DNA of 64,000 bases from Gammaproteobacteria bacterium (GTDB taxonomy: Bacteria > Pseudomonadota > Gammaproteobacteria > Eutrophobiales > Eutrophobiaceae). The stretch spans positions 800,001 to 864,000 of the forward strand of contig OZ220696.1 of assembly GCA_965116495.1 (NCBI GenBank), in the 5' to 3' direction. The notes under the pieces are model-generated. The model made no database searches and was not told the origin of the DNA. It saw only the letters and a program-made list of their open reading frames with translations. A program made the translations under genes and the position numbers. Every line of letters begins with the position of its first letter. The first letter of the stretch is position 1. This document shows, one piece after another, positions 5,721-28,897 of the stretch.

Positions 5721-6073
5721 TGTCATCTGATTGCTGGACAACTATAGGAAATGTGGATGATATACCGGTTGCGGGCGCGCGGGTGGTCATCTCCCCCGGC
5801 TGCAGGATAGCGGTATTTCGAACCGAGGACAATCAAGTCTTCGCGCTGGAAGATCGATGCCCGCATCGCAAAGGTCCTATCAGCCAGGGGATCGTCCACG
5901 GCAAGAAGGTAACATGTCCCCTGCACAACCTGGTTATTGACCTGGACAGTGGAAATACGCAGGAATCCGGCATCGTACCGGTATGCACCATATCCACCCG
6001 GGTCGGAGAGAACGGAGAAGTGCTGCTGAATATGGATGACATCCGGGCCAGACTGGAGTCCGGGACCAGATAA
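5717..6073 (+). CDS. nirD: Nitrite reductase small subunit (Rieske)
   Basis: CPH...CPLH Rieske motif; overlaps the nirB stop. Confidence 0.92.
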   Translation: MMSSDCWTTIGNVDDIPVAGARVVISPGCRIAVFRTEDNQVFALEDRCPHRKGPISQGIVHGKKVTCPLHNLVIDLDSGNTQESGIVPVCTISTRVGENGEVLLNMDDIRARLESGTR

Positions 6074-7266: not shown

Positions 7267-7279
7267 GGTTGATTCTCTC

Positions 7280-7501
7280 TTATGCAGACTCGATAGACAT
7301 GAGTGGCTGATCCTCCTCCACTTCGTCGCCTTCCTTGACCAGGATTTGTTTCACCTTGCCGTCACAGGGAGCATAGACCGGCGTTTCCATTTTCAAAGCC
7401 TCGATGATAAGCACTTCGTCATCCTCTTCGAGGACTTCGTTCAGTGTTGCCGTAATTTTCCAGATTGTTCCCGACAGGGGCGCCAATACCTCTTCCGCCA
7501 T
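7280..7501 (-). CDS. gcdC: Biotin carboxyl carrier subunit of the Na+-translocating decarboxylase
   Basis: 73-aa biotinyl domain with EALKME at the biotin-lysine site. Confidence 0.85.
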   Translation of the reverse strand: MAEEVLAPLSGTIWKITATLNEVLEEDDEVLIIEALKMETPVYAPCDGKVKQILVKEGDEVEEDQPLMSIESA

Positions 7502-7517
7502 GACTTTTCTCCGAGAT

Positions 7518-8621
7518 TTATTGCAAGATTGTTAGAAATATACCGGCAGCAATGACGGTACCGATTACACCGGCGATATTGGGGCCCATGGCAACCATGA
7601 GCAGGTAATTCTTTTTATCCGCCTCAGCCCCAATTTTCTGAACCACCCGGGCCGCCATCGGCACGGCAGAGACCCCGGCCGCGCCGACCAGGGGATTGAT
7701 CTTGTCCGGGATAAAAATATTCAGCAGTTTGGCCAGCAGTATGCCGCTTGCCGTACTGATCATGAATGCGAACATGCCGAGGAAGAAAATCAGTATGACG
7801 TCACTACGTAAAAAACTGTCTGCGCTCATGGTTGCGCCTATACTGACGCCAAGGAATATGGTTGCTATATTCATCAGGGAATTCTGGGCGGCATCAGTCA
7901 AACGATCGACCACCTTGGATTCCCGGAACAGGTTGCCCAGCATGAACATGGACACCAGGGGCGCAGAAGCAGGTACCATCAGGATAATCACCATGGCGGC
8001 TATTATGGGAAACAGCAGCTTCTCCCTCGGACTGATCTTACGGCCTTTGCGCATGCGGATTTTTCGCTCATTTTCCGTCGTCAACAAACGCATGATAGGG
8101 GGCTGGATGATAGGCACCAGCGCCATGTAGGAATAGGCGGCAACCGCGCAGGCACCGAGCAGGTGCGGCGCCAGTTTCGCCGCCAGAAAGATAGTCGTGG
8201 GTCCGTCCGCCCCGCCAATAATGCTGATGGTGGCGGCATCTTCCAGGCTGAAACCCATCCAGCAAGCCAGAAAAAACGTAAGGTAAACACCCACCTGCGC
8301 GCCTGCGCCCAGAAAGATGAGTAATGGTTGCGAGAGTAACGGGCCGAAATCGGTCAGCGCGCCAAGACCCAGGAAGATCAGGGGGGGAATGATGCGCCAT
8401 TCGATCCCGTGGTGATAGAAGCGCCAGAGCAATCCGTCTCCGGGCTCCATCAGCCCGGTCAACGGCAGGTTGGCAAGGAGAATGCCGAAACCTATGGGCA
8501 GCAGCAACAATGGTTCATACTGCCTGGTGACAGCCAGGTAGAGCAGGGTCAGTCCAATCAGCCACATCAGCAACATTTCGGGCGTGACGGAAAAAATCCC
8601 CATGTTTTCTATAAACGCCAT
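7518..8621 (-). CDS. gcdB: Na+-translocating decarboxylase beta subunit
   Basis: EPLLLLPIGFG, IIGGADGPT, GVSAVPMAARV, AMGPNIAGVIG OadB/GcdB motifs. Confidence 0.93.
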   Translation of the reverse strand: MAFIENMGIFSVTPEMLLMWLIGLTLLYLAVTRQYEPLLLLPIGFGILLANLPLTGLMEPGDGLLWRFYHHGIEWRIIPPLIFLGLGALTDFGPLLSQPLLIFLGAGAQVGVYLTFFLACWMGFSLEDAATISIIGGADGPTTIFLAAKLAPHLLGACAVAAYSYMALVPIIQPPIMRLLTTENERKIRMRKGRKISPREKLLFPIIAAMVIILMVPASAPLVSMFMLGNLFRESKVVDRLTDAAQNSLMNIATIFLGVSIGATMSADSFLRSDVILIFFLGMFAFMISTASGILLAKLLNIFIPDKINPLVGAAGVSAVPMAARVVQKIGAEADKKNYLLMVAMGPNIAGVIGTVIAAGIFLTILQ

Positions 8622-8749
8622 TATTCTTCTTTATTCTCCGGCTTCCTGTTTACCACCAGCGCGAGCACCTTGACGGCGAAATACAACATTGCCATTCCGG
8701 CGAATACACCGCCGATACCGTTAAGGAATATTTCCAGTGCCTGTTCCAT
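8621..8749 (-). CDS. gcdD: Small membrane subunit (OadG/GcdD-like), 42 aa
   Basis: Manual translation MEQALEIFLNGIGGVFAGMAMLYFAVKVLALVVNRKPENKEE; one TM helix; TAATG coupling to gcdB; below the ORF-track cutoff. Confidence 0.8.
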   Translation of the reverse strand: MEQALEIFLNGIGGVFAGMAMLYFAVKVLALVVNRKPENKEE

Positions 8750-8772
8750 GAACCTGGTTTTGCCGATAGTGA

Positions 8773-10506
8773 TCAGTTCTTTATAATTCTGGGCAGCATC
8801 ATCTGGTGCCTGGGGCAGATGGAACGCGGGTTCTGGTAAGCTGCTCCTGCAAAAGCCGTAAGATAATTCCTTAATTGCGTCAGGTCCACCACCTCATCGA
8901 CCAGGCCATAACGCGCACAATACTCCGGACTTGAATTTTGCCGGTATTGTTCCGCCAGGGCATTCATCTTGTCGGCAACCTCATCCAGCGGCCTGCCGGC
9001 GTCTTTTTCCTTGACCGCACGCCTCGAGTACATGGCAACGGCTGCGGTCTCACCGTGCATGACAGCTATCTCCGTAGCCGGCGTGCCCAGCGTAAACGCA
9101 TTATGCCGGTTTGCCGTCGGGCCGCCCATCAGGTAGTGAGCCGCGGCCGTCCCCTTGCGCAGAACTACCAGCATCATCGGCAAGTCGGTCTGCTGTATGG
9201 AATAGATCAGGGATTGGCCCAACCCCAGCAGTTCGGCTTTTTCAGCCAGGTCTCCGACGTCGATACCCGAGGTGTCCTGAAACCAGATAACGGGGATACG
9301 GTCACGCCCGCAGTGGGTGACGAATTCGTTCATTTTGATCAGACCCTGGCGATACAGTTTCCCTCCAATACCGGGGTAATCGCCGTATTCCGGATAACCT
9401 TTACCCAGGTAACCGGATCGATTTCCTATACATCCAATTGCAAAACCGTCAAACCTGCATAAGCCCGTGTAGACCTCGGGCCCGTAGTCCGGACGGAATT
9501 CCATGTGTTCGCCGGCGTCCACCAGGCGGGCAAGTATATCGTCAAAGGAATACACCTCTTTCTGGTTAAAAGGCAACAGGTAGTAGAGGTCGTCGGCGGG
9601 ATAGGCCGGCGCGGTGGGTTCGGCAACCTGGAAAAAATGGGGTTTGTACGCAGGCATCGCCTCCATGTATTCCCTGATACCGTCCAGCACTTCCGTCTCT
9701 TCTTCATAGACTTCCGTAAAAAATCCGGTTTCGTCATAATGGGTCTCGGCCCGGCCGGGTGGTTTGGCGCTGAAAGAGCGGGTTTTTTCCACCAGTTCCT
9801 CAAGCATCCCGGCGCTGAATCCCCCTCTTGGCGCCATGCCGGAGACGATACCGACACCGCCTACGGCCATGTTGGCGTCCTTGTGGGCGAGCAGGATAGT
9901 AGGGCTGATGCCGTGATAACCCCCACCGGCGGGGTTTGTGCCGTAAATACCGGCGAGGACCGGCACCCCCAGTTGATTCAATTCTGCATGGCGAAAAAAC
10001 GTCGTGCCTGAACCGCGCCGGTTGGCATAGAACTTTTCCTGCTCATCCAGTTTTACTCCGCTGCAGTTGACCAGCCAGATCAGCGGAATATGGAGTCGTT
10101 TGGCCAGGTCGGTAACACGCAGAATATTCTCGGACTGGCCGGGCAACCAGGCGCCGGCCAACACCTTGTTGTCAAACCCGATCACAACCGCCCAGCGGCC
10201 GGCGACCCTGGCCAGGCCGTCAACCACGTTGGTTGCCCCGGTTGCGTTGTCCATCGGGTTGTAGAGACTGTGCAACGGTCGCCAGGTGCCCGGATCGATC
10301 AGGTATTCCAGGCGTTGCCGGACTGTCATGGCGCCGCGCTTGTTGATTTGTTCCGTGGTGAAACCCGCGTTCTCGACGTCTTTCCTGTGCTGATCAATTT
10401 CCGCCTCAACCTGTTTCAACTGTTCCATGCTTGCGGACGCACGCTTGATCCGGCCTTGCTTCAGTTCCTTGCCGAATCGCTGCATGTTCTCAAAATAAGG
10501 CTTCAT
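8773..10506 (-). CDS. gcdA: Glutaconyl-CoA decarboxylase alpha (carboxyltransferase) subunit
   Basis: PYFENM N-terminus, NCSGVKLDEQEKFYANRRG, GTNPAGGGYH, QDTSGIDVG, KGTAAAHY typical of GcdA. Confidence 0.88.
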   Translation of the reverse strand: MKPYFENMQRFGKELKQGRIKRASASMEQLKQVEAEIDQHRKDVENAGFTTEQINKRGAMTVRQRLEYLIDPGTWRPLHSLYNPMDNATGATNVVDGLARVAGRWAVVIGFDNKVLAGAWLPGQSENILRVTDLAKRLHIPLIWLVNCSGVKLDEQEKFYANRRGSGTTFFRHAELNQLGVPVLAGIYGTNPAGGGYHGISPTILLAHKDANMAVGGVGIVSGMAPRGGFSAGMLEELVEKTRSFSAKPPGRAETHYDETGFFTEVYEEETEVLDGIREYMEAMPAYKPHFFQVAEPTAPAYPADDLYYLLPFNQKEVYSFDDILARLVDAGEHMEFRPDYGPEVYTGLCRFDGFAIGCIGNRSGYLGKGYPEYGDYPGIGGKLYRQGLIKMNEFVTHCGRDRIPVIWFQDTSGIDVGDLAEKAELLGLGQSLIYSIQQTDLPMMLVVLRKGTAAAHYLMGGPTANRHNAFTLGTPATEIAVMHGETAAVAMYSRRAVKEKDAGRPLDEVADKMNALAEQYRQNSSPEYCARYGLVDEVVDLTQLRNYLTAFAGAAYQNPRSICPRHQMMLPRIIKN

Positions 10507-10609: not shown

Positions 10610-10785
10610 CACAATTTGGGACACCCATAAATTGTGCGCTATCTGTAACGCAATCTGGGACACTCGCAAATTTATGTTGTCCTGATTTTCTAATTTATGG
10701 ATGTCCCAAATTAAGAAATATTCTAATTTATGGATGTCCCAAACTAAGAAATATTCTAATTTATGGGTGTCCCAAATTAAGAAAT
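10610..10785. repeat. REP-like hairpin array: two copies of AAT(T/C)TGGGACAC... facing three tandem 33-bp copies of the reverse motif
   Basis: TTCTAATTTATGG(A/G)TGTCCCAAA(T/C)TAAGAAAT at 10688, 10721 and 10754; inverted copies at about 10613 and 10652. Confidence 0.9.
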
Positions 10786-10899
10786 CGAACGAGGCTGATG
10801 TCATTGATTCCAATTGGTGGTTTAATCTGTGCAATAGCGGCTATAATGTACTGGCAGTCCTGTGGCTGCCATAATAATCAATCAGATGGGATATCGTTC

Positions 10900-11298
10900 A
10901 TGCAAATTGTACTACCGTCCGGCTGGCCCCGTCCTCAAGGCTATTCCAACGGGGTTGCCGCGCGCGGCAAGCTGATCTTTGTCGCAGGACAGATTGGCTG
11001 GGATAGAGATAATATCTTAATCAGCGATAACCTGGCTGAACAGGTGCGCCAGACACTGAAAAATACAATTGCCGTACTGGCCGAGGCAGGTGCGGGACCT
11101 GAACATGTAACCAGGATGACCTGGTATATCCTGGACAAACAGGAGTATCGGGCTTGCTTAAAGGAAATAGGGGAAGCCTACCGGGAAGTCATGGGCAGGA
11201 ACTACCCGGCTATGGCCATGGTGCAGGTCACTGCATTGATTGAGGACCGGGCCCGGGTGGAAATTGAAACGACTGCAGTTCTACCCGATCAATCCTGA
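10900..11298 (+). CDS. RidA/YjgF family enamine/imine deaminase
   Basis: PSGWPRPQGYSNG, FVAGQIGWD, RVEIETTA; start moved to ATG 10900. Confidence 0.9.
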   Translation: MQIVLPSGWPRPQGYSNGVAARGKLIFVAGQIGWDRDNILISDNLAEQVRQTLKNTIAVLAEAGAGPEHVTRMTWYILDKQEYRACLKEIGEAYREVMGRNYPAMAMVQVTALIEDRARVEIETTAVLPDQS

Positions 11299-11753
11299 TG
11301 AAATCCGGCAACGAATCCAAGCATTCGTTGAGGGCCTGGCTTTACCTGATCAAGTGCTCGAAAAAACTCGACCAGATCATGTCGACCCGGCTGCGTCTTT
11401 ACCATCAGAGTTCCCTGACAAGATTTGACGTACTGGCACACCTGGACCTGGCAGGTGATGCAGGTTTGAGCACTTCGGTACTGGCCGGCAAGCTGCTGGC
11501 ATCAAAGGGGAATATTACCCGCTTGCTCGACAGGATGGAGCAGGACGAACTTATCGTCAGGCACCAGCATTCCGAAGACAAGCGTATCCACAGAATTTGC
11601 TTGTCCGAAAAAGGCGCCGAGGCGTTCAACCGGATGGCGCCGGACCATGAGCGCTGGACCCATGAAATACTGAGCGTGCTTGATTCCCGTGAACAGGCCG
11701 AACTGGTCCGGTTATTGAAAACAGTCAGGTCGCGACTGGAAGATGTCCTGTAA
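11298..11753 (+). CDS. MarR family transcriptional regulator
   Basis: FDVLAHL, SKGNITRLLDRME, EDKR winged-helix motifs. Confidence 0.92.
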   Translation: MKSGNESKHSLRAWLYLIKCSKKLDQIMSTRLRLYHQSSLTRFDVLAHLDLAGDAGLSTSVLAGKLLASKGNITRLLDRMEQDELIVRHQHSEDKRIHRICLSEKGAEAFNRMAPDHERWTHEILSVLDSREQAELVRLLKTVRSRLEDVL

Positions 11754-11779
11754 GGGATTGTGTCAGCGTAGTGTTGTAC

Positions 11780-11965
11780 TTAGCTGAATAACATACGTAA
11801 GTCAAGCAACAGCAGGGCTATGACCAGTCCCAACGTCAGTCTGCTCGTTATTTTCAACTCCGCCAGTGTAACCACTATCTCAGAATTGTCATTAGCTGCT
11901 TCTTTTGCCACTTGCTCATCCGCTCCGGCTGAAATTAACGCTCGATACAAGTTTGTTCCGTTCAT
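11780..11965 (-). CDS. Small coiled-coil protein with C-terminal TM helix (DUF1640-like)
   Basis: LYRALISAGADEQVAKEAA followed by a hydrophobic tail; GGAGAG RBS before ATG 11965. Confidence 0.6.
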   Translation of the reverse strand: MNGTNLYRALISAGADEQVAKEAANDNSEIVVTLAELKITSRLTLGLVIALLLLDLRMLFS

Positions 11966-12089
11966 ATTTGACTCTCCGTAGAACATATCAAGTTTCCATT
12001 TTGTGTGTTTCTCAGGCCTGCATTGGAATCTAGTATTGAGTGGTCAGCATTGTCAAGTACTATGAAAAAAATATCAAAATGAGTGAAGT

Positions 12090-12138: not shown

Positions 12139-14523
12139 ATGAACGATTTGAAGATAGTCTGTCTCGGCGGGGGACCGGCGTCACTGTATTTCTCCCTCCT
12201 GATGAAAAAAGCGCACTCCGGGCATGATATCACCGTGCTCGAACGCGGCCCCCGTGATGCTACCTGGGGCTTCGGCGTGGTTTTTTCCGACGATACGCTG
12301 CGCGGCTTCATGGAGGCGGATGCGCCCAGCTACAAACGTATCGTCGAGCAATTCGCCTACTGGGACAAGATTGAGACCCGCATGCACGGGACTAAAGTCG
12401 TCAGCGGCGGTCACGGGTTTTGCGGCATGTCGAGACTGAAGTTGCTTAATGCCCTGCATGACCGTTGTGTTGAACTGGGCGTGCTACTGAAGTTCAACAC
12501 CGATATCACCGATCTGGCGCAACTGGATATTGACAAATACGACCTGGTAGTTGCCGGAGACGGCATCACCTCCATGCTGCGTACTGCGTACGCGACGGAA
12601 TTCGGTACCAGGATGGACTGGCGCCCAAATCGCTTCTGCTGGCTGGCAACGACTTTGCCGTTGGACAGTTTCACCTTTATTTTTCGCGAAAACGAACACG
12701 GTTGGTGGTGGGTGCATGGCTATCGTTATGAAGAGGGGATGTCCACCTGGATCGTGGAATGCAGCCAGAAAACCTGGATCAACGCCGGCATGGATTCGTT
12801 CTCCGAGGATGATACCCGAACCTATATTGAAGAAGTGTTCAGGGAAGACCTGCAGGGGCATCCCATTATAACCAACCGGTCGCTATGGCGCGAATTCCCC
12901 GTGGTGACTAACGCCAGGCTGTATTACAAAAATATTGTCCTGCTCGGGGATGCCGGGCGTTCGGCCCACTTTTCCATCGGTTCCGGCACCAAGCTGGCCA
13001 TGGAAGACGCAATTACCCTGGCAGATTTTTTTCGACAGCAGGACTACCGGGTCAACGCCACCCTGGCTGCTTACCAGGAAGTGCGAAAACCTGAGGCAGA
13101 CCGGCTGCAACGCACCGCGGTGACCAGCCTGCGCTGGTTTGAGAACATTGATCACTACGCGCAGCAGGATGTGGAGCAATTCACCTTCAACATGATGGTG
13201 CGTTCCAAACGCGTCACTTACGAGAACCTCAGGCTGCGCGATCCCGCGTTTATTCAATCCATAGACAAGTGGTTTGCCGGATATACCCATACGCTGACGG
13301 GGTTTGACGATATCGATACGGACAACCCCGCGGCGCCGATGTTCCAGCCTTTCAGGATCGGCCGTATGCGCGTCGAAAACCGGGTCCAGCTTTCCGCCAT
13401 GTGCCAATATTGTGCGACGGACGGCCTTCCCGGCGAGTGGCACTTCGTCCATTACGGCGCCAGGGGAATAGGCGGCGCGGGCCTGGTCAGTACGGAAATG
13501 CTGTGCACATCGGCAGACGGGCGGATTACCCCCGGTTGTGCCGGGATATGGAACGATGAACAAACGGAACAATGGCGCCGTATTACCGCGTTCATCCATG
13601 CCCATAGCGAGGCGAAAGTATGCGGGCAAATCGGCCATGCCGGCCGTAAGGGAGCGACCTGTATTCCCTGGCGGGGCGGGATCGATCAGCCGCTCCCGGA
13701 CAACGCCTGGGAGACTATCGCACCGTCACCTCTGCCGTACCTGGAACACAGCCGCCTGCCGCGGGAAATGTCAAGGGAGGACATGGAAGGGGTGGAAGCG
13801 GATTTCGTGAATGCGACCGGGAATGCCGCAGATGCCGGGTTCGATATGCTGGAAGTGCACATGGCGCACGGCTATTTATTGTCTTCCTTTATCAGCCCTT
13901 ACACCAACCGGCGTACTGATGAATATGGCGGGGATATCGGCAACCGCGCCCGGTTTCCGTTGCGTATCCTGCGTGCGGTACGCCAGGCATGGCCGTCGGA
14001 ACGGCCCTTATCGGTGAGAATTTCGGCAACCGACTGGATCAGCGACGGCTTGTCCGGGGAGGATTTGTCCAAACTGGTTTTACTGCTGCAGGAAAACGGC
14101 GCCGACATCATCAATGTATCGACAGGACAGGTCGTCAGCCATGAGGAACCCGTCTACGGACGTATGTACCAGGCGCCATTTGCCGATCGGATCCGCAATG
14201 AACTGGGAATTTCGACCATGGTTGCCGGCAATATCAGCAGTGCAGACCAGGTCAACACCCTGGTCGCCGCAGGGCGGACCGACCTGGTTGCCCTGGCGCG
14301 CCCGATTATGAACGAGCCTCAATTCGTATTGAATGCTGCTGCCCGTTACGGTTACCGGGAGCAGCACTGGCCAGTGCAATACGAGGCGGGAAAATTCGCG
14401 GCGGAACTGAATGCCGCCAGGGAAAACCTGGAACAGGATGAACTGAGAAGCAACGCCAAACCACCGAATCCGCAGGAAATGCTGGCCATTGCCATAGCCC
14501 GCGGTGAGGTGTTATTGGATTGA
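12139..14523 (+). CDS. abmA: Anthraniloyl-CoA monooxygenase/reductase (salicylyl-CoA 5-hydroxylase family)
   Basis: N-terminal flavin monooxygenase (GGGPA, TWGFGVVFSD, AHFSIGSGTKLAMEDA) fused to an OYE domain (EVHMAHGYLLSSF). Confidence 0.88.
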   Translation: MNDLKIVCLGGGPASLYFSLLMKKAHSGHDITVLERGPRDATWGFGVVFSDDTLRGFMEADAPSYKRIVEQFAYWDKIETRMHGTKVVSGGHGFCGMSRLKLLNALHDRCVELGVLLKFNTDITDLAQLDIDKYDLVVAGDGITSMLRTAYATEFGTRMDWRPNRFCWLATTLPLDSFTFIFRENEHGWWWVHGYRYEEGMSTWIVECSQKTWINAGMDSFSEDDTRTYIEEVFREDLQGHPIITNRSLWREFPVVTNARLYYKNIVLLGDAGRSAHFSIGSGTKLAMEDAITLADFFRQQDYRVNATLAAYQEVRKPEADRLQRTAVTSLRWFENIDHYAQQDVEQFTFNMMVRSKRVTYENLRLRDPAFIQSIDKWFAGYTHTLTGFDDIDTDNPAAPMFQPFRIGRMRVENRVQLSAMCQYCATDGLPGEWHFVHYGARGIGGAGLVSTEMLCTSADGRITPGCAGIWNDEQTEQWRRITAFIHAHSEAKVCGQIGHAGRKGATCIPWRGGIDQPLPDNAWETIAPSPLPYLEHSRLPREMSREDMEGVEADFVNATGNAADAGFDMLEVHMAHGYLLSSFISPYTNRRTDEYGGDIGNRARFPLRILRAVRQAWPSERPLSVRISATDWISDGLSGEDLSKLVLLLQENGADIINVSTGQVVSHEEPVYGRMYQAPFADRIRNELGISTMVAGNISSADQVNTLVAAGRTDLVALARPIMNEPQFVLNAAARYGYREQHWPVQYEAGKFAAELNAARENLEQDELRSNAKPPNPQEMLAIAIARGEVLLD

Positions 14524-14583
14524 ACATGCGTTATAATTTACCGGGCATGTAACGACATGAAGGACAGGGTGGGAGAATCTAAG

Positions 14584-15906
14584 ATGACAAAATACACCGA
14601 TGAACAACTGGCCGGTTTGATCAGAAAAGATTGCGTCCATAGAAACGTCTATACCGATCCTGAAATCTTTGATCTTGAGATGGAACGCATCTGGACCAAA
14701 GCCTGGATCTACGTGGGCCATGACAGTCAGGTAAAACAGCCGGGCGACTATTTCGCCACCAGTATCGGCAGGCAGCCTGTCATCATGACCCGGCACAGCG
14801 ACGGAAAGGTTTACGTTCTGTTCAACCGCTGCAGCCACAAGGGCGCCCAGGTGGTAGGTGAGAGTTGCGGCCACATGCAGCAGTTACGCTGCAGCTACCA
14901 TGGTTACGTATTCGACACCGACGGCACCTTGATACATATCCCCCGGGAAGAAGCCTACGACGGCGCCGGGTTCGGCAAAGGCAAGGCGGAATCCAATATG
15001 CAGCGGGTACCGCGGGTGGACAGTTACCACGGCCTGGTATTCGCCAGCCTGTCTGCACAAGGTCCTGATCTGAAAACCTGGTTAAGTGGCGCCGCGGCAT
15101 CCATTGATAACCTGGTGGAACGCTCACCGGAAGGGCGTATTGAAATTGCCGGGGGCTGTTTCCGTTACCTGCATGATTCCAACTGGAAGATGTTTGTGGA
15201 AAACCTGAATGACGCCATGCACCCGATGGTCGTTCACCAGTCGTCCAGCGGTACTGCCAAACGGGTATTTGATGAACGCCTGAAAGAGGGGGACCCGGTA
15301 CCGTTCGAACTTGAGATGCTGGCGCCGTTCACCAACAACTACGAGTTCTTTGAAAAGATGGGGCTCACTGCCTGGGACAACGGTCACAGTGTCACCGGAG
15401 GCAAGTTCAGTATCCATTCAGCCTATTCACCCATTCCCGGCTACATGGATTCCCTGGTCGAAAAATATGGCGAGCAGAAGGCGCGGGAAATCCTAGCGGT
15501 AAACCGCCACAACACCGTGGTCTATCCCAGCTTTACCCTGAAGGGCGCAATCACCTCGATACGCGTGGTCAAACCTGTGGCCGTAGACAGAACCGTTATC
15601 GAATCCTGGGTGTTCAGACAGGTAGGAGCGCCGGAAGAACTGTTTCGACGTTCCATCACTTACTGCAACCTCATCAATTCCCATGCCAACCTGGTAGGCC
15701 CCGATGACTACGAAGCCTATCACCGCCTGCAATATGGCCTGCAGACACAGGATGATAACGAATGGGTAAGCCAGCACCGCTACCTGGACCAGGAAGAGCT
15801 GGAGGAAAATGGGACCAAGCATGCAGCAGGGACGTCCGATATGGTCTTTCGCCACCAGTATCAGACCTGGAAAAACTATATGGTCGACACCCGGCATGCA
15901 CAATGA
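14584..15906 (+). CDS. Rieske ring-hydroxylating oxygenase alpha subunit (IadD-like)
   Basis: CSHKG...CSYHG Rieske ligands; DAMHPMVVH and DDYEA mononuclear iron ligands. Confidence 0.92.
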   Translation: MTKYTDEQLAGLIRKDCVHRNVYTDPEIFDLEMERIWTKAWIYVGHDSQVKQPGDYFATSIGRQPVIMTRHSDGKVYVLFNRCSHKGAQVVGESCGHMQQLRCSYHGYVFDTDGTLIHIPREEAYDGAGFGKGKAESNMQRVPRVDSYHGLVFASLSAQGPDLKTWLSGAAASIDNLVERSPEGRIEIAGGCFRYLHDSNWKMFVENLNDAMHPMVVHQSSSGTAKRVFDERLKEGDPVPFELEMLAPFTNNYEFFEKMGLTAWDNGHSVTGGKFSIHSAYSPIPGYMDSLVEKYGEQKAREILAVNRHNTVVYPSFTLKGAITSIRVVKPVAVDRTVIESWVFRQVGAPEELFRRSITYCNLINSHANLVGPDDYEAYHRLQYGLQTQDDNEWVSQHRYLDQEELEENGTKHAAGTSDMVFRHQYQTWKNYMVDTRHAQ

Positions 15907-16396
15907 ACAAACGGGCAACCCGCCCGACATCAAATCGATTGAGCAGTTCCTGTACCATGAAGCGCGCCTGCTGGATGAGCAACGCTGGGAAGAATGGAAC
16001 GCCCTGTACCTGGACGATGCCGAATACTGGGTACCGGCGGCACCGGACCAGCCGGATCCGCACAACCATGTCTCCCTGATCTATGAGACCGGGCTGCTCA
16101 GGGCTGTGCGTATCAAACGCTATAAACACCCGAATGCATTTTCCCTGCAGCCCAGGCCGCGCAGTGTGCACCTGATAAACAATATCATCCTGGACAAGTT
16201 TGATGCGGACAGCGGGGAGTGCAGCGTCAATTCTCGTTTTGTCATGCTGCAGTACCGCCGTGAAAAACAGGATGTATTCGCCGGGTCCTGCAATCACAGG
16301 CTGCGCATAGAGGGAGACGAATTCAGGATCGCGGGCAAGCGCGTAGACCTGCTCAACTGCGATGCGCCGCTGGAAAATATACTTATCTACCTGTAA
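15896..16396 (+). CDS. Ring-hydroxylating oxygenase beta subunit
   Basis: EQFLYHEARLLDEQRWEEW, YWVP, KRVDLLN; start moved to ATG 15896. Confidence 0.92.
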   Translation: MHNEQTGNPPDIKSIEQFLYHEARLLDEQRWEEWNALYLDDAEYWVPAAPDQPDPHNHVSLIYETGLLRAVRIKRYKHPNAFSLQPRPRSVHLINNIILDKFDADSGECSVNSRFVMLQYRREKQDVFAGSCNHRLRIEGDEFRIAGKRVDLLNCDAPLENILIYL

Positions 16397-16696
16397 ATGC
16401 CGCCAGGACGTACTAAATCCATCACCTCCGCCGCCTATCTGAAATTCGGGCACACCCACAGCGGATTGTCGCGGCGGCTGCTCATTGTGCTGATCGCCCT
16501 GGTGCTGGGGTTTGATTTTCTCTGTGTTTACGCAGCTGAATTCATGGGTGCGCCCCTGTCAGAAGGCAGTGTCGTGTCAATCGGCATCGCTATTGCACTG
16601 CTCATTATCCTGTTCATTCTTACTGCTGCCCTGTACTACGTCCGGCGGATCAATACGGCATACCTCGAAATGCATAAATCCCCGGATGAAGACTGA
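16397..16696 (+). CDS. DUF485/YjcH-like small membrane partner of ActP
   Basis: Two TM helices with YVRRIN motif, directly upstream of the actP-like gene. Confidence 0.75.
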   Translation: MPPGRTKSITSAAYLKFGHTHSGLSRRLLIVLIALVLGFDFLCVYAAEFMGAPLSEGSVVSIGIAIALLIILFILTAALYYVRRINTAYLEMHKSPDED

Positions 16697-18335
16697 ATCA
16701 TACCGTATCCGACTCCTTGTCGTACCGGCGTTGTTGTTGCTGATGGCAACAGCTCCGGTCACGGCTGGGGCAGGGGAACAGGAACTTAACTACCCCGCCA
16801 TAACCTCATTCCTACTGTTCATCATAGCTACCCTGTTTGTTACCGCCTATGCGGCCCGCCGTACCCGCTCCAGGCAGGACTTCTATGTCGCGGCTAACAC
16901 GATAGGCGGTTTACAGAACGGCATTGCGATTTCCGGCGACTACATGTCAGCCGCCTCGTTCCTCGGCCTGGTCGGCCTGCTCTTCCTCGGTGGTTTCGAC
17001 ACCATCTATTTCATCGTCAACCTGATCCTGAGTTGGGCGGTTGTGCTGATGCTTATCGCCGAAAAACTGCGCAACCTGGGGTCTTATACCTTTGCGGACG
17101 CGGTCTCCGTCAGGTTGGCGTCCAGGCCAATCCGGGTGCTGGCGGCAACGGGAACCCTGGCCGTTGCCATACCCTACCTGCTGGCACAGATGGTTGCCGC
17201 CGGCACCCTGGTTGAATCCCTGTTTGGTCTCGATTATATCCAGGGCGTGCTGATCGTCGGTGTGTTGATGACGGTTTATGTGACGTTCGGCGGCATGATC
17301 GCAACAACCTGGGTCCAGATAATCAAGGCGGTACTGCTGGTCGGCGGCGGCACCATACTTGCCGTCGGCATATTGTTTACCTTTGATTTTAACGTCAACG
17401 AACTGGCCGGCCTGGCGGTAAACAAACACCCGGAGGGACTGGCCATCATGCAACCGGGCCTGCTTTACCCGGATATCGTCACCGTCATCTCCCTGAGCCT
17501 GGCGTTTATCGGCGGCACCGCCGGATTACCCCATGTCATGATGCGCTTTTTCACTGTACCGGACGGGGTGCAGGCAAGACGTTCCGCAGCCTGGGCCATG
17601 GGCATCATCAGTTATTTCCAGTTCGTAGTACTGATTATCGGTTTAGGCGCTATCGTGTTATTGACGGACAACCCGGAATTTACCAGTGGCGGACTCGAGG
17701 TTATCGGCGGCAGCAATATGGCGGCGATCCACCTGTCCCAGGTCGTCGGCGGTAATATTTTCATGGGTTTCATCTGTGCGGTTGCGTTCGCTACCATTCT
17801 CGCCGTCGTTTCCGGGCTGATGTTATCCGCCGCAACCACCATATCCCATGACCTGTATGCCGGGGTGATCCGCAAGGGGTCATGCACCGATGCGGAAGAA
17901 TTACGCGTTTCCAGACTGACAGTGGTCATGTTAAGTATCGTCGGCATCCTGCTGGCGGTCTTGTTCAAGGGACAGAATGTCGCGGTACTCGCCACCTTGC
18001 CCCTGGTGATCGCAGCCAGCGCCAATTTTCCGGTGCTACTCCTGTTCATGTACTGGAGAGGATTTACCACCCGGGGAGCATTATTCGGCGGTTATACCGG
18101 ATTGTTACTGGCCGTCTCCCTGATTATCCTGGGCCCGACCGTATGGGTAAACGTGCTGGGCCATGAGGCACCGGTATTCCCCTATGCGTATCCGACGCTG
18201 TTTTCCATGGGCGCGTGCTTCCTGTTTGCCTGGTTTTTCTCAATTACGGATAATAGTCCGCGAGCCGCTGCTGAAGCGGATGCTTTTGACGAGCAATTGC
18301 GGCGCTCGCAGATCGGAGAACTGTCCCATGGGTAA
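16686..18335 (+). CDS. actP: Sodium:solute symporter, ActP-like
   Basis: QNGIAISGDYMSAASFLG, FGGMIATTWVQIIKA, GTAGLPHVMMRFFTV, SANFP; start moved to ATG 16686. Confidence 0.88.
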   Translation: MKTESYRIRLLVVPALLLLMATAPVTAGAGEQELNYPAITSFLLFIIATLFVTAYAARRTRSRQDFYVAANTIGGLQNGIAISGDYMSAASFLGLVGLLFLGGFDTIYFIVNLILSWAVVLMLIAEKLRNLGSYTFADAVSVRLASRPIRVLAATGTLAVAIPYLLAQMVAAGTLVESLFGLDYIQGVLIVGVLMTVYVTFGGMIATTWVQIIKAVLLVGGGTILAVGILFTFDFNVNELAGLAVNKHPEGLAIMQPGLLYPDIVTVISLSLAFIGGTAGLPHVMMRFFTVPDGVQARRSAAWAMGIISYFQFVVLIIGLGAIVLLTDNPEFTSGGLEVIGGSNMAAIHLSQVVGGNIFMGFICAVAFATILAVVSGLMLSAATTISHDLYAGVIRKGSCTDAEELRVSRLTVVMLSIVGILLAVLFKGQNVAVLATLPLVIAASANFPVLLLFMYWRGFTTRGALFGGYTGLLLAVSLIILGPTVWVNVLGHEAPVFPYAYPTLFSMGACFLFAWFFSITDNSPRAAAEADAFDEQLRRSQIGELSHG

Positions 18336-18371
18336 ACACAGGCTGCCCAGTCATACTGCCGGAAGAATTGT

Positions 18372-20015
18372 ATGGAAATGACTACCGTGTACGACAAATT
18401 TCTGGAAACCGGGCGGAACGTCCCGGCACAGGCCTTCCTGCACATCCCGCACCAGGCAGCCCGGGGGTACCATCAAGGCCCGGTTGACTATACCTACAAC
18501 CAGGCTCGCCAGGCCGCCGCTTCACTGAGCGAACGCTATGCTGCCGCAGGCTACGGGCACGGCCACAGAATTGCCGTCATGCTGGACAATCGCGCCGATT
18601 TTTTCCTGCACTTTCTGGCCCTGAACAAACTTGGAGTGAGCGTCGTGCCGGTCAATTCCGGCTTCCTTCCCGGTGAAATCAACTACGTCATCAGCCACAG
18701 TGATGCCTGTCTTGTCCTGTGCCTGCCCCAATATCGCGGGAAAGTGGAGGCCGCTTTGTCCGCTCAAGGTACAGCCACTCCAATCACGGACACCTCTGCA
18801 ACGACGGAATTACCACCTTGCAGGCAGGCAATTACGGACGGAACGCCCGACCGGCATTCTGAAGTAGCCGTACTGTATACCTCCGGCACAACGGGTAAAC
18901 CCAAAGGCTGTATGCTGAACAATGAATATTTTACCTGCATGGGCGAGTGGTACGCGAATATAGACGGCTATTGCCGGTTGACGTATGGAGAGGAGCGGAT
19001 GCTGACACCGCTGCCGCTGGTCCACATGAATGCATTATGCTCCATGATGGCCATGATCATGAGTGGCGGTTGCATAATCCAGCTGGACCGTTTCCATGCT
19101 TCCAACTGGTGGGATACGGTACGCTCCTCCGGGGCTACCTGTCTGCACTACCTGGGAGTAATCCCGGCAATTCTGCTGAACCAGCCGGAAACGGAACATG
19201 ACAACCTGGGGACACAGGTCAAGTTCGGTTTCGGCGCCGGGGTTGATCCGAAACACCTGCAACGATTTGAACGGCGTTTTGGTTTTCCCCTGGTGGAGGG
19301 TTGGGCCATGACGGAGACCGGCACTCACGTCTGTATCACCGCCAATAAGGAGCCGCGCCATATCGGGACACGCTGCATCGGCAGGGCGCCGGAGACCATC
19401 GAGTATCGCCTCGTGGATGAACAGGGGAAAGATGTCGGACCGGGTGAACCGGGAGAGTTGTTAATTCGCGCCAGTGGGGAAAACCCGCGCAAGGGTTTCT
19501 TTTCCGGCTACTATAAAAACCCTGAAGAAACTGCCAGGGTATGGGAAGGGGGCTATTTCCATACCGGCGATGTGGTGCGCATCAGCGAGGACGGTTCTTT
19601 TCATTTTGTCGACCGCCGTAAAAACATCATCCGGCGCAGTGGCGAAAATATCGCTGCCGTTGAAGTGGAGAACATCCTGTTCCAGCATCCGGTCATCGCC
19701 AATTGCGCGGTGACGCCTGTTTACGATGAACTACGCGGCGAAGAAGTAGGCGTTTGCATTATCCTGAGTGAAACCGTACGGGAACAGTATGCCGGCAATG
19801 ATGCCGTGGCAGATGCCTTGTTCGCTTTCTGCCTTGAACAGTTGATTTACTACAAGGTTCCGGCTTATTACCTGTTCGTAACCGAGTTGCCCATGACCGT
19901 GTCGCAGAAATTGCAACGCGGTGAAATCAAAACCCTTGCCAACAGGCTGGTGGAAGAGGGCAGATGTATCGACCTGAGAAAGCGCAAGCGCAGGAATAAA
20001 AATGCAGCCCTATAA
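18372..20015 (+). CDS. Acyl-CoA ligase (CaiC-like)
   Basis: YTSGTTGKPKG, GWAMTE, FHTGD, RRSGENI AMP-binding motifs. Confidence 0.92.
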   Translation: MEMTTVYDKFLETGRNVPAQAFLHIPHQAARGYHQGPVDYTYNQARQAAASLSERYAAAGYGHGHRIAVMLDNRADFFLHFLALNKLGVSVVPVNSGFLPGEINYVISHSDACLVLCLPQYRGKVEAALSAQGTATPITDTSATTELPPCRQAITDGTPDRHSEVAVLYTSGTTGKPKGCMLNNEYFTCMGEWYANIDGYCRLTYGEERMLTPLPLVHMNALCSMMAMIMSGGCIIQLDRFHASNWWDTVRSSGATCLHYLGVIPAILLNQPETEHDNLGTQVKFGFGAGVDPKHLQRFERRFGFPLVEGWAMTETGTHVCITANKEPRHIGTRCIGRAPETIEYRLVDEQGKDVGPGEPGELLIRASGENPRKGFFSGYYKNPEETARVWEGGYFHTGDVVRISEDGSFHFVDRRKNIIRRSGENIAAVEVENILFQHPVIANCAVTPVYDELRGEEVGVCIILSETVREQYAGNDAVADALFAFCLEQLIYYKVPAYYLFVTELPMTVSQKLQRGEIKTLANRLVEEGRCIDLRKRKRRNKNAAL

Positions 20016-21165
20016 CGATGTTGCGCTGGTTGCCGCGACCAGTATTCCCTATGTGCGGCGCAGCGAGCGAAGCGCTGCCTGGTTTATAGGCACCGTCTTC
20101 GCAAGAATGATCGAGACCGCGGGATTAAACAGGAATGAGATTGACGGCCTGGCCATAGCCAGCTTTACCCTGGCGCCCGACAGCGTTGTCAGCATGACCG
20201 AATATCTCGATATCTCGCCCGGTTGGCTGGAACAGATCCCGATGGGCGGCGCCAGCGGACCCGTGGCCGTCCGGCGCGCGGCCCGTGCGGTACAAGCGGG
20301 CGATGCCGGGGTCGTGGCATGTATCGGCGCCGATACGGCTTCTGCCAGCACCTTTAGGGACCTGGTCAGCAATTTCAGTCGGTTCTCAACCGATGCCGTA
20401 TTCCCCTACGGCGCAGGCGGACCGAATACCGTGTTTGCCATGATTACCCGCCACTACATGGAGAAATACGGGGCGGAACGGGAAGATTTCGGCCGTGTCT
20501 GCATTGCCCAGAGGGAAAATGCGCTGGCCGCGGGCACTGCCGTCTTCAAAACACCGTTATCGATGGAGGACTACCTCGATGCACGTTCCATCAGCGAACC
20601 CCTGCACCTGTTCGATTGCGTCATGCCCGTCGCCGGGGCGGACGGTTTCCTGGTCATGACGGTTGCCCGGGCCCGGTCGCTGGGCCTGCCTTATGCCAGG
20701 ATACTGGCTGCGGGAGAGAAGCATAACGCCTGGTCCGGTGACGACGTTCACTTTCGCGGCGGCTGGAGCCTGTACCGTGACCGGATGTACGAGCAGGCTG
20801 ACCTCGGCCCCGGTGATATTGATTTTCTGCAGACATACGACGACTACCCGGTCATTTCCATGATCCAGATGGAAGACCTGGGCTTTTGTGAAAAGGGCGG
20901 GGCGGCCGAATTTGTCCGCACTCACCCGTTGACCTGGAACGGCGGAGGCCTGCCGCATAATACCTGCGGCGGTCAACTATCCGCGGGGCAGGCAGGCGCT
21001 GCCGGCGGTTTCCTGGGTACGGTCGAAGCGATCCGCCAGTTGACTGAAACCGGTTTGTCCAACCAGGTCGCCGGCGCAATGGCGGGTATGGCAAGCGGCT
21101 ATGGAATGGTCAATTACGATCACTGTTTATGCACCAGTGCCGTAATACTCGGGAGGGGAGAATGA
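20002..21165 (+). CDS. Thiolase-fold protein lacking the catalytic Cys (Ltp2/SCP2-like)
   Basis: MGGASG in place of CxSG, YDDY, NTCGGQLSAGQAG in place of GHP. Confidence 0.85.
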   Translation: MQPYNDVALVAATSIPYVRRSERSAAWFIGTVFARMIETAGLNRNEIDGLAIASFTLAPDSVVSMTEYLDISPGWLEQIPMGGASGPVAVRRAARAVQAGDAGVVACIGADTASASTFRDLVSNFSRFSTDAVFPYGAGGPNTVFAMITRHYMEKYGAEREDFGRVCIAQRENALAAGTAVFKTPLSMEDYLDARSISEPLHLFDCVMPVAGADGFLVMTVARARSLGLPYARILAAGEKHNAWSGDDVHFRGGWSLYRDRMYEQADLGPGDIDFLQTYDDYPVISMIQMEDLGFCEKGGAAEFVRTHPLTWNGGGLPHNTCGGQLSAGQAGAAGGFLGTVEAIRQLTETGLSNQVAGAMAGMASGYGMVNYDHCLCTSAVILGRGE

Positions 21166-21617
21166 TGAGCGGCCAAGCGGGCCCACCCGTTGCACGCTCC
21201 GCCCTTTGGCAGCAAGTCAACCAGGCAGCAAAAGAGGAGGCTTTCAAGCTGCAGGTCTGCAGCAAGTGTGACAGGGTTCAGTATCCGCCCCGGGAATTCT
21301 GCAGTTATTGCCTGGTTGGCGAATTGTCATGGGAAACTGTCAGCCCGATGGGAAAAGTGCTGTCCTGGACCACAACCCATGCCAGCAGCAACCGGTTTTT
21401 CAAGGGTATACTACCTTTTCACGTCGGCATGATTAAACTGGATTGCGGCCCGGTTCTGATCGCATACCTGGCTACGGCATCATTACACACGGGGAGCCGG
21501 GTTCAGGTCACAGGCATGCCGGACAAGTCCGGCCAGGCCGTTTTCCTTGCCGGACCGCCGGGTACGGATCCGCGGGTTGAATTCAGTCACATACTGATTA
21601 AAAATGTTGATAAATAG
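21162..21617 (+). CDS. DUF35 Zn-ribbon/OB-fold protein
   Basis: CSKC...YPPREFCSYC Zn ribbon followed by an OB fold; ATGA coupling to the thiolase-fold gene. Confidence 0.88.
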   Translation: MMSGQAGPPVARSALWQQVNQAAKEEAFKLQVCSKCDRVQYPPREFCSYCLVGELSWETVSPMGKVLSWTTTHASSNRFFKGILPFHVGMIKLDCGPVLIAYLATASLHTGSRVQVTGMPDKSGQAVFLAGPPGTDPRVEFSHILIKNVDK

Positions 21618-21620
21618 TAC

Positions 21621-21646
21621 TGGATTCCTGCCTCCGCAGGAATGAC
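21621..21646. repeat. Palindromic unit TGGATTCCTGCCTCCGCAGGAATGAC (same family as inside the MITE at 46787-46871)
   Basis: ATTCCTGC...GCAGGAAT stem directly after the DUF35 stop. Confidence 0.75.
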
Positions 21647-21668
21647 GGATAATTCGATGAGGTGAGAC

Positions 21669-22400
21669 ATGGCGAAAAAAAATAAGGTGGTTGTAATAAC
21701 GGGCGGCAACAGGGGTATAGGCGCCGATATTACCCGGCGTTTTCTTGACAGCGGTTACCTGGTCGTCAATATCTCCCGGCAGACCCCTGAATTCTCCCAC
21801 GAGCGCCTGGTCAACTACACGGCGGACCTGGCAGATCCGCAGGCAACCATGGACGTCGGCATGGAGATAGCAGGTAACCATACGGTAACGGACTTCATTC
21901 ACAACGCCGGGGTGATCCGTCCGGATTTGCTGGAAGACGTGAAGCTGGAAGACCTGGACTACCTGACCCAGTTGCACCTGGGCAGCGCCATCACGCTTGC
22001 GCAACAGTTTATTCCCGCCATGCGCAGCGCGCAGTACGGCCGCATCATCCTCATATCATCCCGCGGCGTGCTGGGACTCGTAACCCGGACGAATTACGCC
22101 GCAACCAAAGCCGGTCAGATCGGTATCACGCGCACCTGGGCGCTGGAACTGGCAAAAGACGGGATCACTGTAAACTGCGTCGCGCCGGGTCCCATCGTGA
22201 CAGACATGTTCCATGAACTGGTCCCGGAAGACAGCGAGCAGAAGTCCAGGATTGCAGGGAGCGTCCCTGTCAAACGCCTGGGCACACCCGAAGACATCGG
22301 CCGTGTAGTCAAGTTTTTATGCGAGGAAGAGAGCGGTTTCATCACGGGACAGACCTGGTACATCTGCGGCGGCGCCAGCCTGGGATCTCTGGCTTTGTGA
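21669..22400 (+). CDS. Short-chain dehydrogenase/reductase
   Basis: TGGNRGIG, HNAG, YAATKAG motifs. Confidence 0.92.
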   Translation: MAKKNKVVVITGGNRGIGADITRRFLDSGYLVVNISRQTPEFSHERLVNYTADLADPQATMDVGMEIAGNHTVTDFIHNAGVIRPDLLEDVKLEDLDYLTQLHLGSAITLAQQFIPAMRSAQYGRIILISSRGVLGLVTRTNYAATKAGQIGITRTWALELAKDGITVNCVAPGPIVTDMFHELVPEDSEQKSRIAGSVPVKRLGTPEDIGRVVKFLCEEESGFITGQTWYICGGASLGSLAL

Positions 22401-22513
22401 CCTGGGCGAGTGATTCCTGTGGCGGTTCTCCGGTATTCCTTCTTTCTTGACGAGAGAAAGATTCCCATAGTATTCTTCATACTGCATTTCAATAAAGAAA
22501 GAGGGAACAGACA

Positions 22514-22744
22514 ATGAGTGCTACTGACGTATCAACAGGAGATTACGGTGAAAGACTGACCAGGATCGAAGTCACGTTAGGGGGTCATGGAGAACGGCTG
22601 TCAAGAATAGAAGCCACTTTGTCGCACATGGCAACCTCAGAGGAACTGCAGAAGGTAATTACTGAAGTAAGCATCCTGAAGTGGCTGCTGGGGACTACCG
22701 CCGCGGCAGTCCTGTATGCGGCGGCAAAATATCTGTTAAGCTGA
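22514..22744 (+). CDS. Small coiled-coil protein with C-terminal TM helix (DUF1640/XhlA-like)
   Basis: Internal repeat GERL(T/S)RIE(V/A)TL x2, MATSEEL, hydrophobic tail; GAGGGA RBS. Confidence 0.65.
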   Translation: MSATDVSTGDYGERLTRIEVTLGGHGERLSRIEATLSHMATSEELQKVITEVSILKWLLGTTAAAVLYAAAKYLLS

Positions 22745-22758
22745 GAGTGTGACGGCGG

Positions 22759-25754: not shown

Positions 25755-26594
25755 TCAGCGAAGGAGATATTCGATTATTTCATGTGCGACAAGCGCAGGT
25801 TGCTCGTACAGCAGAAAATGTCCGCCTGCCAATACACAACTTTCCGAGTTGGGGATCATCTCCAGCATTTGCCCGAAGCCGACTCCACTTGCGCTGGGGT
25901 TTATCGGGTTCATTATATCCTCATCAGCACCGAGCAATAATGTTTCAGCTTTTATCCCTGGCAAGACGTTGCTTAAGTCCACTCCTTGCGATGTACCTTT
26001 GACATCCTTGCCGAAGTTATCGAGTGATCCGGGCTGAAAGGATCGTTCGAATGCTGCCACAACCTGGTTTTTATCATGACGATCCCAGAATGCTCGCGAA
26101 AAGCCCTGCAGCATAACCAACTCCATAAACGCTTCGGCGCCGCCATTGCGGGCGGCCGTTATCCATGTCTGCCGCATTACAAGTGCTGCGCGATCGAGAC
26201 ACGCGATTGCCAGTGAAATAATCAGACGTTGAATAAGAGCAGGGTGATCGGAGGCAAGCGCCAGCGCGATTCGTCCACCCATGGAGGTGCCGTGAACGTG
26301 AATTGGACCGCAATCAAGGGCTTCGATTGCCGCTGCCGTATCTGCCGCGTAACTACCCGGGTCGCGAGCATGTTCTGCCGCTGAACTATCTCCATAACCA
26401 GGCAGGTCGATATCCAAAACTTCGAAGTGTTTTGTCAGTAGCGGTGTCAGAAGATCGAAATTACGGTGTCCGGTGCCGACGCCGTGAACCTGCAGTAATC
26501 TCGGCCCACTACCTGCAACCCGTACGGCGATGGTCCCGCGCGAAGTATCGAGCAATCGCTGTTCCCCAATAGCCGCGACGCCTGCTTCGCTCAT
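25755..26594 (-). CDS. Alpha/beta hydrolase
   Basis: HG oxyanion loop, GTSMGG nucleophile elbow, GGH; ATGA coupling to the upstream gene gives start 26594. Confidence 0.9.
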   Translation of the reverse strand: MSEAGVAAIGEQRLLDTSRGTIAVRVAGSGPRLLQVHGVGTGHRNFDLLTPLLTKHFEVLDIDLPGYGDSSAAEHARDPGSYAADTAAAIEALDCGPIHVHGTSMGGRIALALASDHPALIQRLIISLAIACLDRAALVMRQTWITAARNGGAEAFMELVMLQGFSRAFWDRHDKNQVVAAFERSFQPGSLDNFGKDVKGTSQGVDLSNVLPGIKAETLLLGADEDIMNPINPSASGVGFGQMLEMIPNSESCVLAGGHFLLYEQPALVAHEIIEYLLR

Positions 26595-28864: not shown

Positions 28865-28897
28865 TTCGCTTACCTTTGTTTTACGGATGCAAATAGT

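Follow-up and report, generated by a model that had tools for sequence, protein, structure and literature searches.

In the iad pathway of Variovorax paradoxus CL14, IadCDE and then IadJ convert indole-3-acetate (IAA) to dioxindole-3-acetate, and IadG is named a ketothiolase from its annotation (PMC12633357; papers are cited here by PubMed Central identifier). The marine bacterium R. pomeroyi DSS-3 is a tested IAA degrader with an iad locus (PMC9613470), and an AbmA-type reaction on anthraniloyl-coenzyme A (CoA) is described in PMC3534580. Here we analysed a 64,000-nucleotide stretch, hereafter the window, of a gammaproteobacterial genome of the family Eutrophobiaceae (assembly GCA_965116495.1, contig OZ220696.1, positions 800,001–864,000). 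Judged from its sequence, the gene cluster at window positions 12139–22400 is a genuine iad operon with a new, trimmed layout that belongs to the core gene set of a genus likely to be associated with sponges. The kind of pathway, the marine occurrence of iad and the abm route were already known. The cluster comprises the following genes:

12139–14523 (+): AbmA-like anthraniloyl-CoA monooxygenase/reductase, with a flavin adenine dinucleotide (FAD) monooxygenase and an old yellow enzyme (OYE) domain (PF01494 and PF00724; NF006101)
14584–15906 (+; longest open reading frame from 14557): IadD orthologue, Rieske oxygenase alpha subunit (PDB 7YLS/9O71 and pocket)
15903–16396 (+): IadE orthologue, beta subunit (top PDB match 7YLS_A)
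16397–16696 (+): DUF485 small membrane partner of ActP (PF04341)
16686–18335 (+): ActP-like permease of the solute:sodium symporter family (PF00474; NF006903)
18372–20015 (+): IadF-like CoA ligase (R. pomeroyi IadF)
20002–21165 (+): IadG, thiolase fold, predicted retro-aldolase (R. pomeroyi IadG; Sal 9MYR, Ltp2 6OK1; YDDY motif)
21162–21617 (+): stand-alone DUF35 protein (ChsH2 zinc ribbon and oligonucleotide-binding fold), corresponding to the IadH N-terminus (PF12172 and PF01796)
21669–22400 (+): IadJ-like dehydrogenase of the short-chain dehydrogenase/reductase (SDR) family (R. pomeroyi IadJ)

All of these genes are intact. From abmA to the SDR gene, the gaps between likely starts are 60, −4, 0, −11, 36, −14, −4 and 51 bp, with four junctions overlapping, in agreement with the first-pass annotation, which had described its eight named genes as co-directional with gaps of at most about 60 bp; its family labels are likewise borne out by Pfam and NCBIfam profiles. 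The G + C content of the operon is ordinary relative to the window. The gene order is not due to chance: it is repeated in relatives and, as variants, in many unrelated proteobacterial loci. Judged by spacing only, the genes are presumably co-transcribed; a scan for promoters and terminators found nothing above a shuffled background (13 versus 9.3 ± 3.3 and 17 versus 11.6 ± 4.2).

The best solved relatives of the window alpha subunit are PDB entries 7YLS/8H2T and 9O71 (472 bits, with the next family at 153 bits), and the top PDB match of the beta subunit is 7YLS_A (E 1e-35; next 2e-14). We take 7YLS/8H2T to be the structures of the IadD pocket study, the residue numbering of which fits. Entry 9O71 is the Variovorax IadDE structure (PMC12633357). 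The IAA pocket is formed by N210, L211, H216, H221, F251, H311, K322, R329 and Y362, with D377 as an iron ligand (PMC10374108), and alignment to these residues reveals that the window IadD keeps all ten, as N216, L217, H222, H227, F258, H318, K329, R336, Y369 and D384; five more distantly related paralogues in the genome retain only 4–8 of the ten. The R. pomeroyi DSS-3 proteins D, E, F, G, H and J each find their best match in the genome in a window gene, with identities of 43% for D, 34% for E, 47–48% for F, 52% for G and 46% for J; the window DUF35 protein is 34% identical to residues 23–153 of R. pomeroyi IadH. Because IadD is the closest solved relative, the nine pocket residues are kept and iadF, iadG, the iadH N-terminus and iadJ have matching genes, we assign the operon to iad, and it would very probably act on IAA-type substrates. 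The first-pass call of an iad-like locus is thereby upheld by adjacent IadD and IadE orthologues with an intact pocket and by iadF, iadG and iadJ orthologues in the cluster, and the comparison that it proposed with IadD to IadH returns window matches for D, E, F, G and the N-terminal part of H.

Two points count against an assignment made from the oxygenase by itself. One paralogue without iad neighbours keeps nine of the ten pocket and iron positions (the seven other alpha paralogues of the genome keep 9, 8, 8, 5, 4, 4 and 5), and in a quick tree, which gave long-branch warnings and included no Variovorax IadD, the window IadD belongs to a clade of its own that does not contain the R. pomeroyi enzyme. 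All ten positions are complete in 100 of 113 alpha-subunit homologues examined, so that with the 9/10 paralogue the IAA pocket marks the family rather than the window gene alone, and context decides. An IadD/E-like pair with a 9/10 pocket lies at G000:C1:1707466-1709365, directly behind a ribosomal protein operon and near kynureninase-like genes. A Variovorax plasmid locus (L096) was rejected as a true iad locus, as it holds C-D-E-SDR only and its pocket keeps 8/10.

Compared with the CL14 gene table, the window operon is without iadA, iadB, iadC, iadI and the ATP-binding cassette (ABC) transporter genes, and only the DUF35 half of IadH is present. Lacking iadC, the SDR domain of IadH, iadI and iadAB, the operon cannot by itself lead to anthranilate. 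IadH is a DUF35–SDR fusion; its SDR half had no tblastn match in the window genome at E 1e-3 and is also absent in 15 of 33 distant loci having DUF35. No IadC-type reductase was found in the genome, and full-length matches occur in only 2 of 22 genus relatives, which counts against the route proposed below; the only candidates in the genome, all rejected, were a MOSC-reductase fusion, a PaaE-like gene, reductases of di-iron monooxygenases and a lone 87-residue 2Fe-2S domain. In Variovorax, iadC is dispensable (PMC12633357).

The missing late genes have apparent counterparts 0.5 Mb away. There, a fused IadAB is encoded by a single 1253-residue frame (G000:C1:1349327-1353088) directly behind a cyclase gene; its IadA and IadB parts are 61% and ~50% identical, respectively, to iadAB of full iad loci. 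The fusion is present in 15/22 relatives, in every case with the cyclase directly upstream, and in six distant loci a true IadI stands directly before iadAB in the same order. The IadI of R. pomeroyi is homologous to isatin hydrolase (E 4e-107), and none of the four cyclases of the genome is an iadI orthologue. The iadAB-linked cyclase (G000:C1:1353097-1353870) keeps the HxGTHxDxPxH metal motif, with Gln where KynB has Glu, and is plausibly a putative IadI replacement, after which fused IadAB would likely yield anthraniloyl-CoA for AbmA. This assignment is weakened by the low identity of the cyclase to IadI (~26%, without the GLQC/GLAS and WxW motifs) and by its best PDB matches being uncharacterised hydrolases. 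Another cyclase (G000:C1:3038020), although 30% identical, was rejected: its first metal His is replaced by Asn, it apparently carries a signal peptide and it does not stand among iad genes.

The same trimmed operon bears on how the side chain is removed. We predict that IadG is a retro-aldolase releasing isatin and acetyl-CoA, an assignment that we regard as probable. Sal (9MYR) and Ltp2 (6OK1) are its top sequence and fold matches, with Sal–DUF35 and Ltp2–DUF35 first in a fold search with an AlphaFold2 model (predicted local distance difference test score 88). At what we take to be the position of the nucleophilic Cys of thiolases, the motif reads GGA in 51/51 IadG homologues, and a second motif, YDDY, is likewise present in all 51; in the alignment its counterparts are YDCY in Sal and YDHF in Ltp2. 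In the DUF35-partnered retro-aldolases Sal and Ltp2, the Tyr of the YD motif is the catalytic base (PMC12329534). IadG lacks the aldolase catalytic acid, with Asp281 at the Sal Cys304 site (the Ltp2 equivalent is Tyr344), and has Gln in the second-Tyr region, as does Sal. These features suggest an enzyme that works like Sal and Ltp2 but belongs to neither clade. A retro-aldol cleavage would be the chemically direct route because dioxindole-3-acetyl-CoA is a tertiary beta-hydroxy thioester, and, carried out by IadG with DUF35, it would account for the lack of the IadH SDR half both in this operon and in distant loci.

Several observations run counter to a retro-aldolase. In the fold search, true thiolases score almost as high (TM scores of 0.85–0.87 versus 0.88). 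The Variovorax iadI mutant accumulates C8H7NO2 (dioxindole) and not isatin, iadC-K2 of Variovorax restored anthranilate without iadAB, and the authors of that work take side-chain removal by IadFGH as reductive (all PMC12633357). In the reading that we propose, the dioxindole of the mutant would be isatin reduced by the IadH SDR. The words "aldol" and "DUF35" do not occur in the available text of PMC12633357, nor "aldol" in that of PMC12852158.

Beyond anthraniloyl-CoA, the genes that would complete degradation lie upstream of the operon, as do a RidA-family and a MarR gene:

366–3154 (−): genes for an acyl-CoA dehydrogenase, an enoyl-CoA hydratase and an SDR, which likely serve beta-oxidation in the abm route; the same three directly precede abmA in locus L172
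6109–10506 (−): glutaryl-CoA dehydrogenase-like protein and alpha and beta subunits resembling Na+-pumping glutaconyl-CoA decarboxylase (NF045552, TIGR01109, PF01039)
10798–11753 (+): RidA-family gene and MarR regulator, which travel with abmA

AbmA is full length, and its NF006101 score (1039.7 bits) is just below the cut-off of 1078, a point against its assignment. In the 6109–10506 block, NF045552 reaches 437 bits (cut-off 470), TIGR01109 is above its cut-off and PF01039 is matched; no biotin-carrier gene was seen beside these genes. In most of the close loci they are transcribed divergently to iad. Pairing of glutaryl-CoA dehydrogenase with a Na+-translocating glutaconyl-CoA decarboxylase is a feature of strict anaerobes; here, as in both close and deeper relatives, the two are neighbours of the iad genes, which depend on oxygen. 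Nitrite reductase genes nirBD (3273–6073) separate the abm beta-oxidation genes from the glutaryl-CoA genes, and nirB also occurs in loci L029 and L042. The MarR protein is not especially close to the IAA-binding IadR 7KFO, which is its ninth match (E 4e-7). An anthranilate-CoA ligase-like gene (G000:C1:3538723-3540354; best PDB match 4WV3) is unlinked and is present in 16/22 relatives. The genome appears to hold a complete CoA-dependent anthranilate route. The coupling to this route claimed by the first-pass annotation survives at the level of the genome; it does not for the operon, which by itself stops short of anthranilate, and the abmA junction is neither fixed nor unique.

Our preferred reading assembles these parts into one route. 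DUF485–ActP would import IAA; IadDE would add one oxygen at C2–C3 with electrons from an unlinked reductase; IadJ would form dioxindole-3-acetate; and IadF would make its CoA ester, the oxygenase, IadJ and IadF steps following Variovorax genetics (PMC12633357). IadG and the stand-alone DUF35 protein would then split the tertiary beta-hydroxyacyl-CoA into isatin and acetyl-CoA. The cyclase would open isatin, and fused IadAB would oxidatively decarboxylate isatinate to anthraniloyl-CoA; alternatively, free anthranilate might be activated by the unlinked ligase. Finally, AbmA would dearomatise anthraniloyl-CoA, and its degradation would be completed by the genes nearby for beta-oxidation, glutaryl-CoA dehydrogenase and glutaconyl-CoA decarboxylase. 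A linked amine dehydrogenase, described below, would supply an entry from tryptamine. That the whole route runs as drawn, from IAA through anthraniloyl-CoA to AbmA, seems to us somewhat the better bet.

An alternative that we consider unlikely, if worth weighing, is that D-E-F-G-DUF35-J, the core genes, serve solely to gain the acetyl side chain, isatin or anthranilate being released, with abmA a separate anthranilate or salicylate module that is freely lost. Its appeal comes from the genus: the core is in 22/22 relatives, whereas abmA is found in 14 (directly upstream of iadD in 11, 6 kb away in one, across a contig break in one and far off in one) and iadAB in 15, with both in 11. That abmA was not found in eight relatives, iadAB not in seven and neither in four (which are 94–97% complete) counts against the joined route. 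Only 5′ fragments of abmA are left in L016 and L040, in the deeper relatives L035 and L037 MarR immediately precedes IadD and there is no abmA, and the NCBIfam name of NF006101 is salicylyl-CoA 5-hydroxylase. Against a freely separate module, abmA also stands within 10 kb of iad in 3 of 58 more distant loci, many of which have short flanks (L054, L057 and L089, all unrelated; in L054 it is directly behind iadJ), it is present somewhere in 5/5 other iad genomes tested, and the window genome has all the downstream genes. The link between abmA and iad is real and recurrent but optional, and as an arrangement it is modest.

The remaining alternatives concern substrate and mechanism. The same chemistry might serve mainly 5-hydroxy- or brominated indole-3-acetate from sponge indole metabolism, the second alpha subunit D2 (below) widening the range. 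Brominated indoles occur in sponges, window IadD has Met-Leu beside the pocket Phe where the betaproteobacterial clade has Gln-Phe, and D2 has conserved pocket changes and stands behind the amine dehydrogenase in 18/22 relatives; Variovorax IadCDE, moreover, is described as also turning over 5-hydroxy- and 4-chloro-IAA. Yet D retains every one of the nine published contact residues and there is no downstream sign of dehalogenation, which leaves this a distinctly improbable account. We give very little credence to IadG as a true ketothiolase, with the side chain leaving via oxidation and thiolysis, even though it is annotated so in PMC12633357, real thiolases such as BbsAB (which come next by fold) can also have a DUF35 partner and Cys107 and Cys206 are invariant: both Cys align with Cys of the aldolases too, the nucleophile motif is without Cys, the second catalytic site is occupied by Asp, and the tertiary alcohol of dioxindole-3-acetyl-CoA cannot be oxidised to a beta-ketone. 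That the substrate of the oxygenase is a non-indolic aromatic acid, with the iad likeness being mere ancestry, we find scarcely credible. The ~50% identity to canonical iad alpha subunits and the several related alpha subunits in the genome would allow it, but the pocket, the partner genes, the unlinked cyclase–iadAB and the abm genes all fit a path from indole to anthranilate.

How substrate would enter the route is suggested by the transporter and by genes further along the window:

40682–42513 (+): tryptophan tryptophylquinone (TTQ) amine dehydrogenase, large and small subunits (PF06433, PF02975)
42537–43856 (+): D2, a second IadD-like alpha subunit without a beta gene (399 bits to 7YLS)
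44012–45478 (+): conserved OYE-family flavoenzyme behind D2 (PF00724)

An ActP-family permease in place of the ABC genes, as first proposed, is what the comparison with CL14 gives. The DUF485–ActP pair is present in 16/21 informative close loci and three distant ones, and a second such pair (G000:C1:4154092-4156066, 51% identity) lies between an acyl-CoA ligase and paa-like genes. The window permease is likely to take up aryl-acetates; a point against this is that its NF006903 score of 702 bits falls just short of the cut-off (750). A PDB search with the permease gave no match at 1e-10. The best PDB match of the TTQ enzyme is aromatic amine dehydrogenase (158 bits), by a small margin over methylamine dehydrogenases (154 and 130 bits). 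Its small subunit has an orthologue in 20/22 relatives, and four distant loci also pair iad with a TTQ amine dehydrogenase. D2, in which two conserved pocket changes are seen (Leu to Val and His to Gln), is nested in the D clade with only 85% support, and homologues of the OYE flavoenzyme are also near iad genes in L039 and L066. In compact genomes the dehydrogenase–D2 block follows iadJ by 0–3 kb and ends at dksA–smc, a placement that points to vertical inheritance. The dehydrogenase likely feeds the iad route from tryptamine, as far as sequence comparison can indicate. Enzymes of the aromatic amine dehydrogenase class oxidise tryptamine and take tyramine and dopamine as well, which pulls against a tryptamine entry, as does an HpaE-type dehydrogenase gene, a cluster member between iad and the amine dehydrogenase in three of these four distant loci; with that gene there, tyramine or dopamine is as possible as tryptamine.

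The island also contains a variable block (26591–35887) with a hydantoinase-like pair, a luciferase-like monooxygenase and a molybdenum hydroxylase, enzyme types that occur in the anaerobic iaa pathway; the molybdenum hydroxylase could oxidise indole-3-acetaldehyde. Aromatic catabolism is richly represented in the genome at large, which has eight Rieske alpha subunits, three TTQ dehydrogenases and three soluble di-iron monooxygenase-like clusters (in G000:C1:578000-589400 and 3432000-3436400, labelled from reading the sequences). Two short open reading frames with a hydrophobic C-terminus occupy the gaps flanking the operon, at ~11770–11980 (−) and ~22514–22745 (+), the former being skipped in contigs of two other sequencing runs. 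An element at 10614–10778 has 21-bp terminal inverted repeats and inner tandem copies; with up to two mismatches allowed, its end motif has 179 occurrences in the genome, and the fillings vary in other runs.

IadD and IadG orthologues are present in 22/22 genus relatives and in 0/18 other genomes searched, so that iad is in all 23 genus genomes searched, tied to the amine dehydrogenase. The close relatives are all metagenome-assembled genomes (MAGs). The stretch was found in 20 sequencing runs from 11 studies, none of them an RNA run; "sponge metagenome" accounts for 0.54 and "viral metagenome" for 0.32 of the words, the former being the one informative habitat label among the 20 runs. In the sponge run, contigs cover 18960–21473 (161 differences) and 21682–22401, and the abmA–iadD part is patchy. 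From this single label and what is known of MAG sets, the genus is likely sponge-associated. The first-pass description of a non-rhizosphere lineage holds as far as the label tells, although R. pomeroyi had already made marine, non-root iad a published fact. In one locus (L038), on a contig titled Planctomycetota, the gcd–iad block has 65–82% identity and groups with gammaproteobacterial sequences, through either transfer or misbinning.

The middle steps of iad have been assigned from annotation only, and this naturally reduced operon points to the parts that the pathway may be able to do without. Published surveys report iad in just 2 of 304 marine MAGs, yet all members of this genus examined carry it, tied to an amine dehydrogenase. 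The open literature on sponge symbionts, tryptamine and IAA degradation and anthraniloyl-CoA monooxygenase gave no description of the locus (supplements of iad surveys may list the genomes), and none of a retro-aldolase reading, a fused IadAB with a replaced cyclase or an amine dehydrogenase link. Symbiont-made tryptamine changes the swimming of sponge larvae (PMC10570526), and a degrader would be the missing sink. A bolder and, in our estimate, doubtful proposal is that the operon is part of a core, chromosomally fixed trace-amine sink, in which the amine dehydrogenase would convert tryptamine and its ring-substituted forms (the latter by way of D2, which would use IadE as its beta subunit) to indole-3-acetates, and a YDDY retro-aldolase of a new type and fused IadAB would carry these on to anthraniloyl-CoA. 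The symbiont would in this way control the level of amines to which sponge larvae respond in their behaviour, and at the aldolase step the published iad pathway would have to be corrected for every bacterium with iad.

Set beside described systems, the locus joins features of several. The known abm cluster, which we take to hold RidA, MarR, acyl-CoA dehydrogenase, hydratase and SDR genes near AbmA, shares with the window a full-length, two-domain AbmA and these same neighbours, whereas in the window genome the ligase-like gene is unlinked and the cluster is split by nirBD and the glutaconyl-CoA decarboxylase genes. The iad locus of Variovorax paradoxus CL14 (iadABCDEFGHIJK-N; PMC9613470, PMC10374108, PMC12633357) has the same IadD/E pocket and F/G/J order, and its iadAB has homologues in the window genome. 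The window differs from it in having no iadC, an IadH cut to DUF35, no iadI orthologue, a fused and unlinked iadAB with a divergent cyclase, ActP instead of the ABC genes and abmA in front (the CL14 table, in the available part of the PMC9613470 supplement, lists no abm gene). R. pomeroyi DSS-3, from a non-root habitat as is the window, carries the full C-D-E-F-G-H-I-J set in one operon on a megaplasmid, and the genes annotated up to 12 kb from it include no abmA, ActP or amine dehydrogenase. Finally, IadG has in common with Sal–Shy(DUF35) and Ltp2–ChsH2(DUF35) (9MYR, 6OK1; PMC12329534) the thiolase fold, the DUF35 partner and the Tyr of the YD motif; it differs in reading YDDY instead of YDCY or YDHF, in an identity of 28–29% and in standing in an indole rather than a steroid context.

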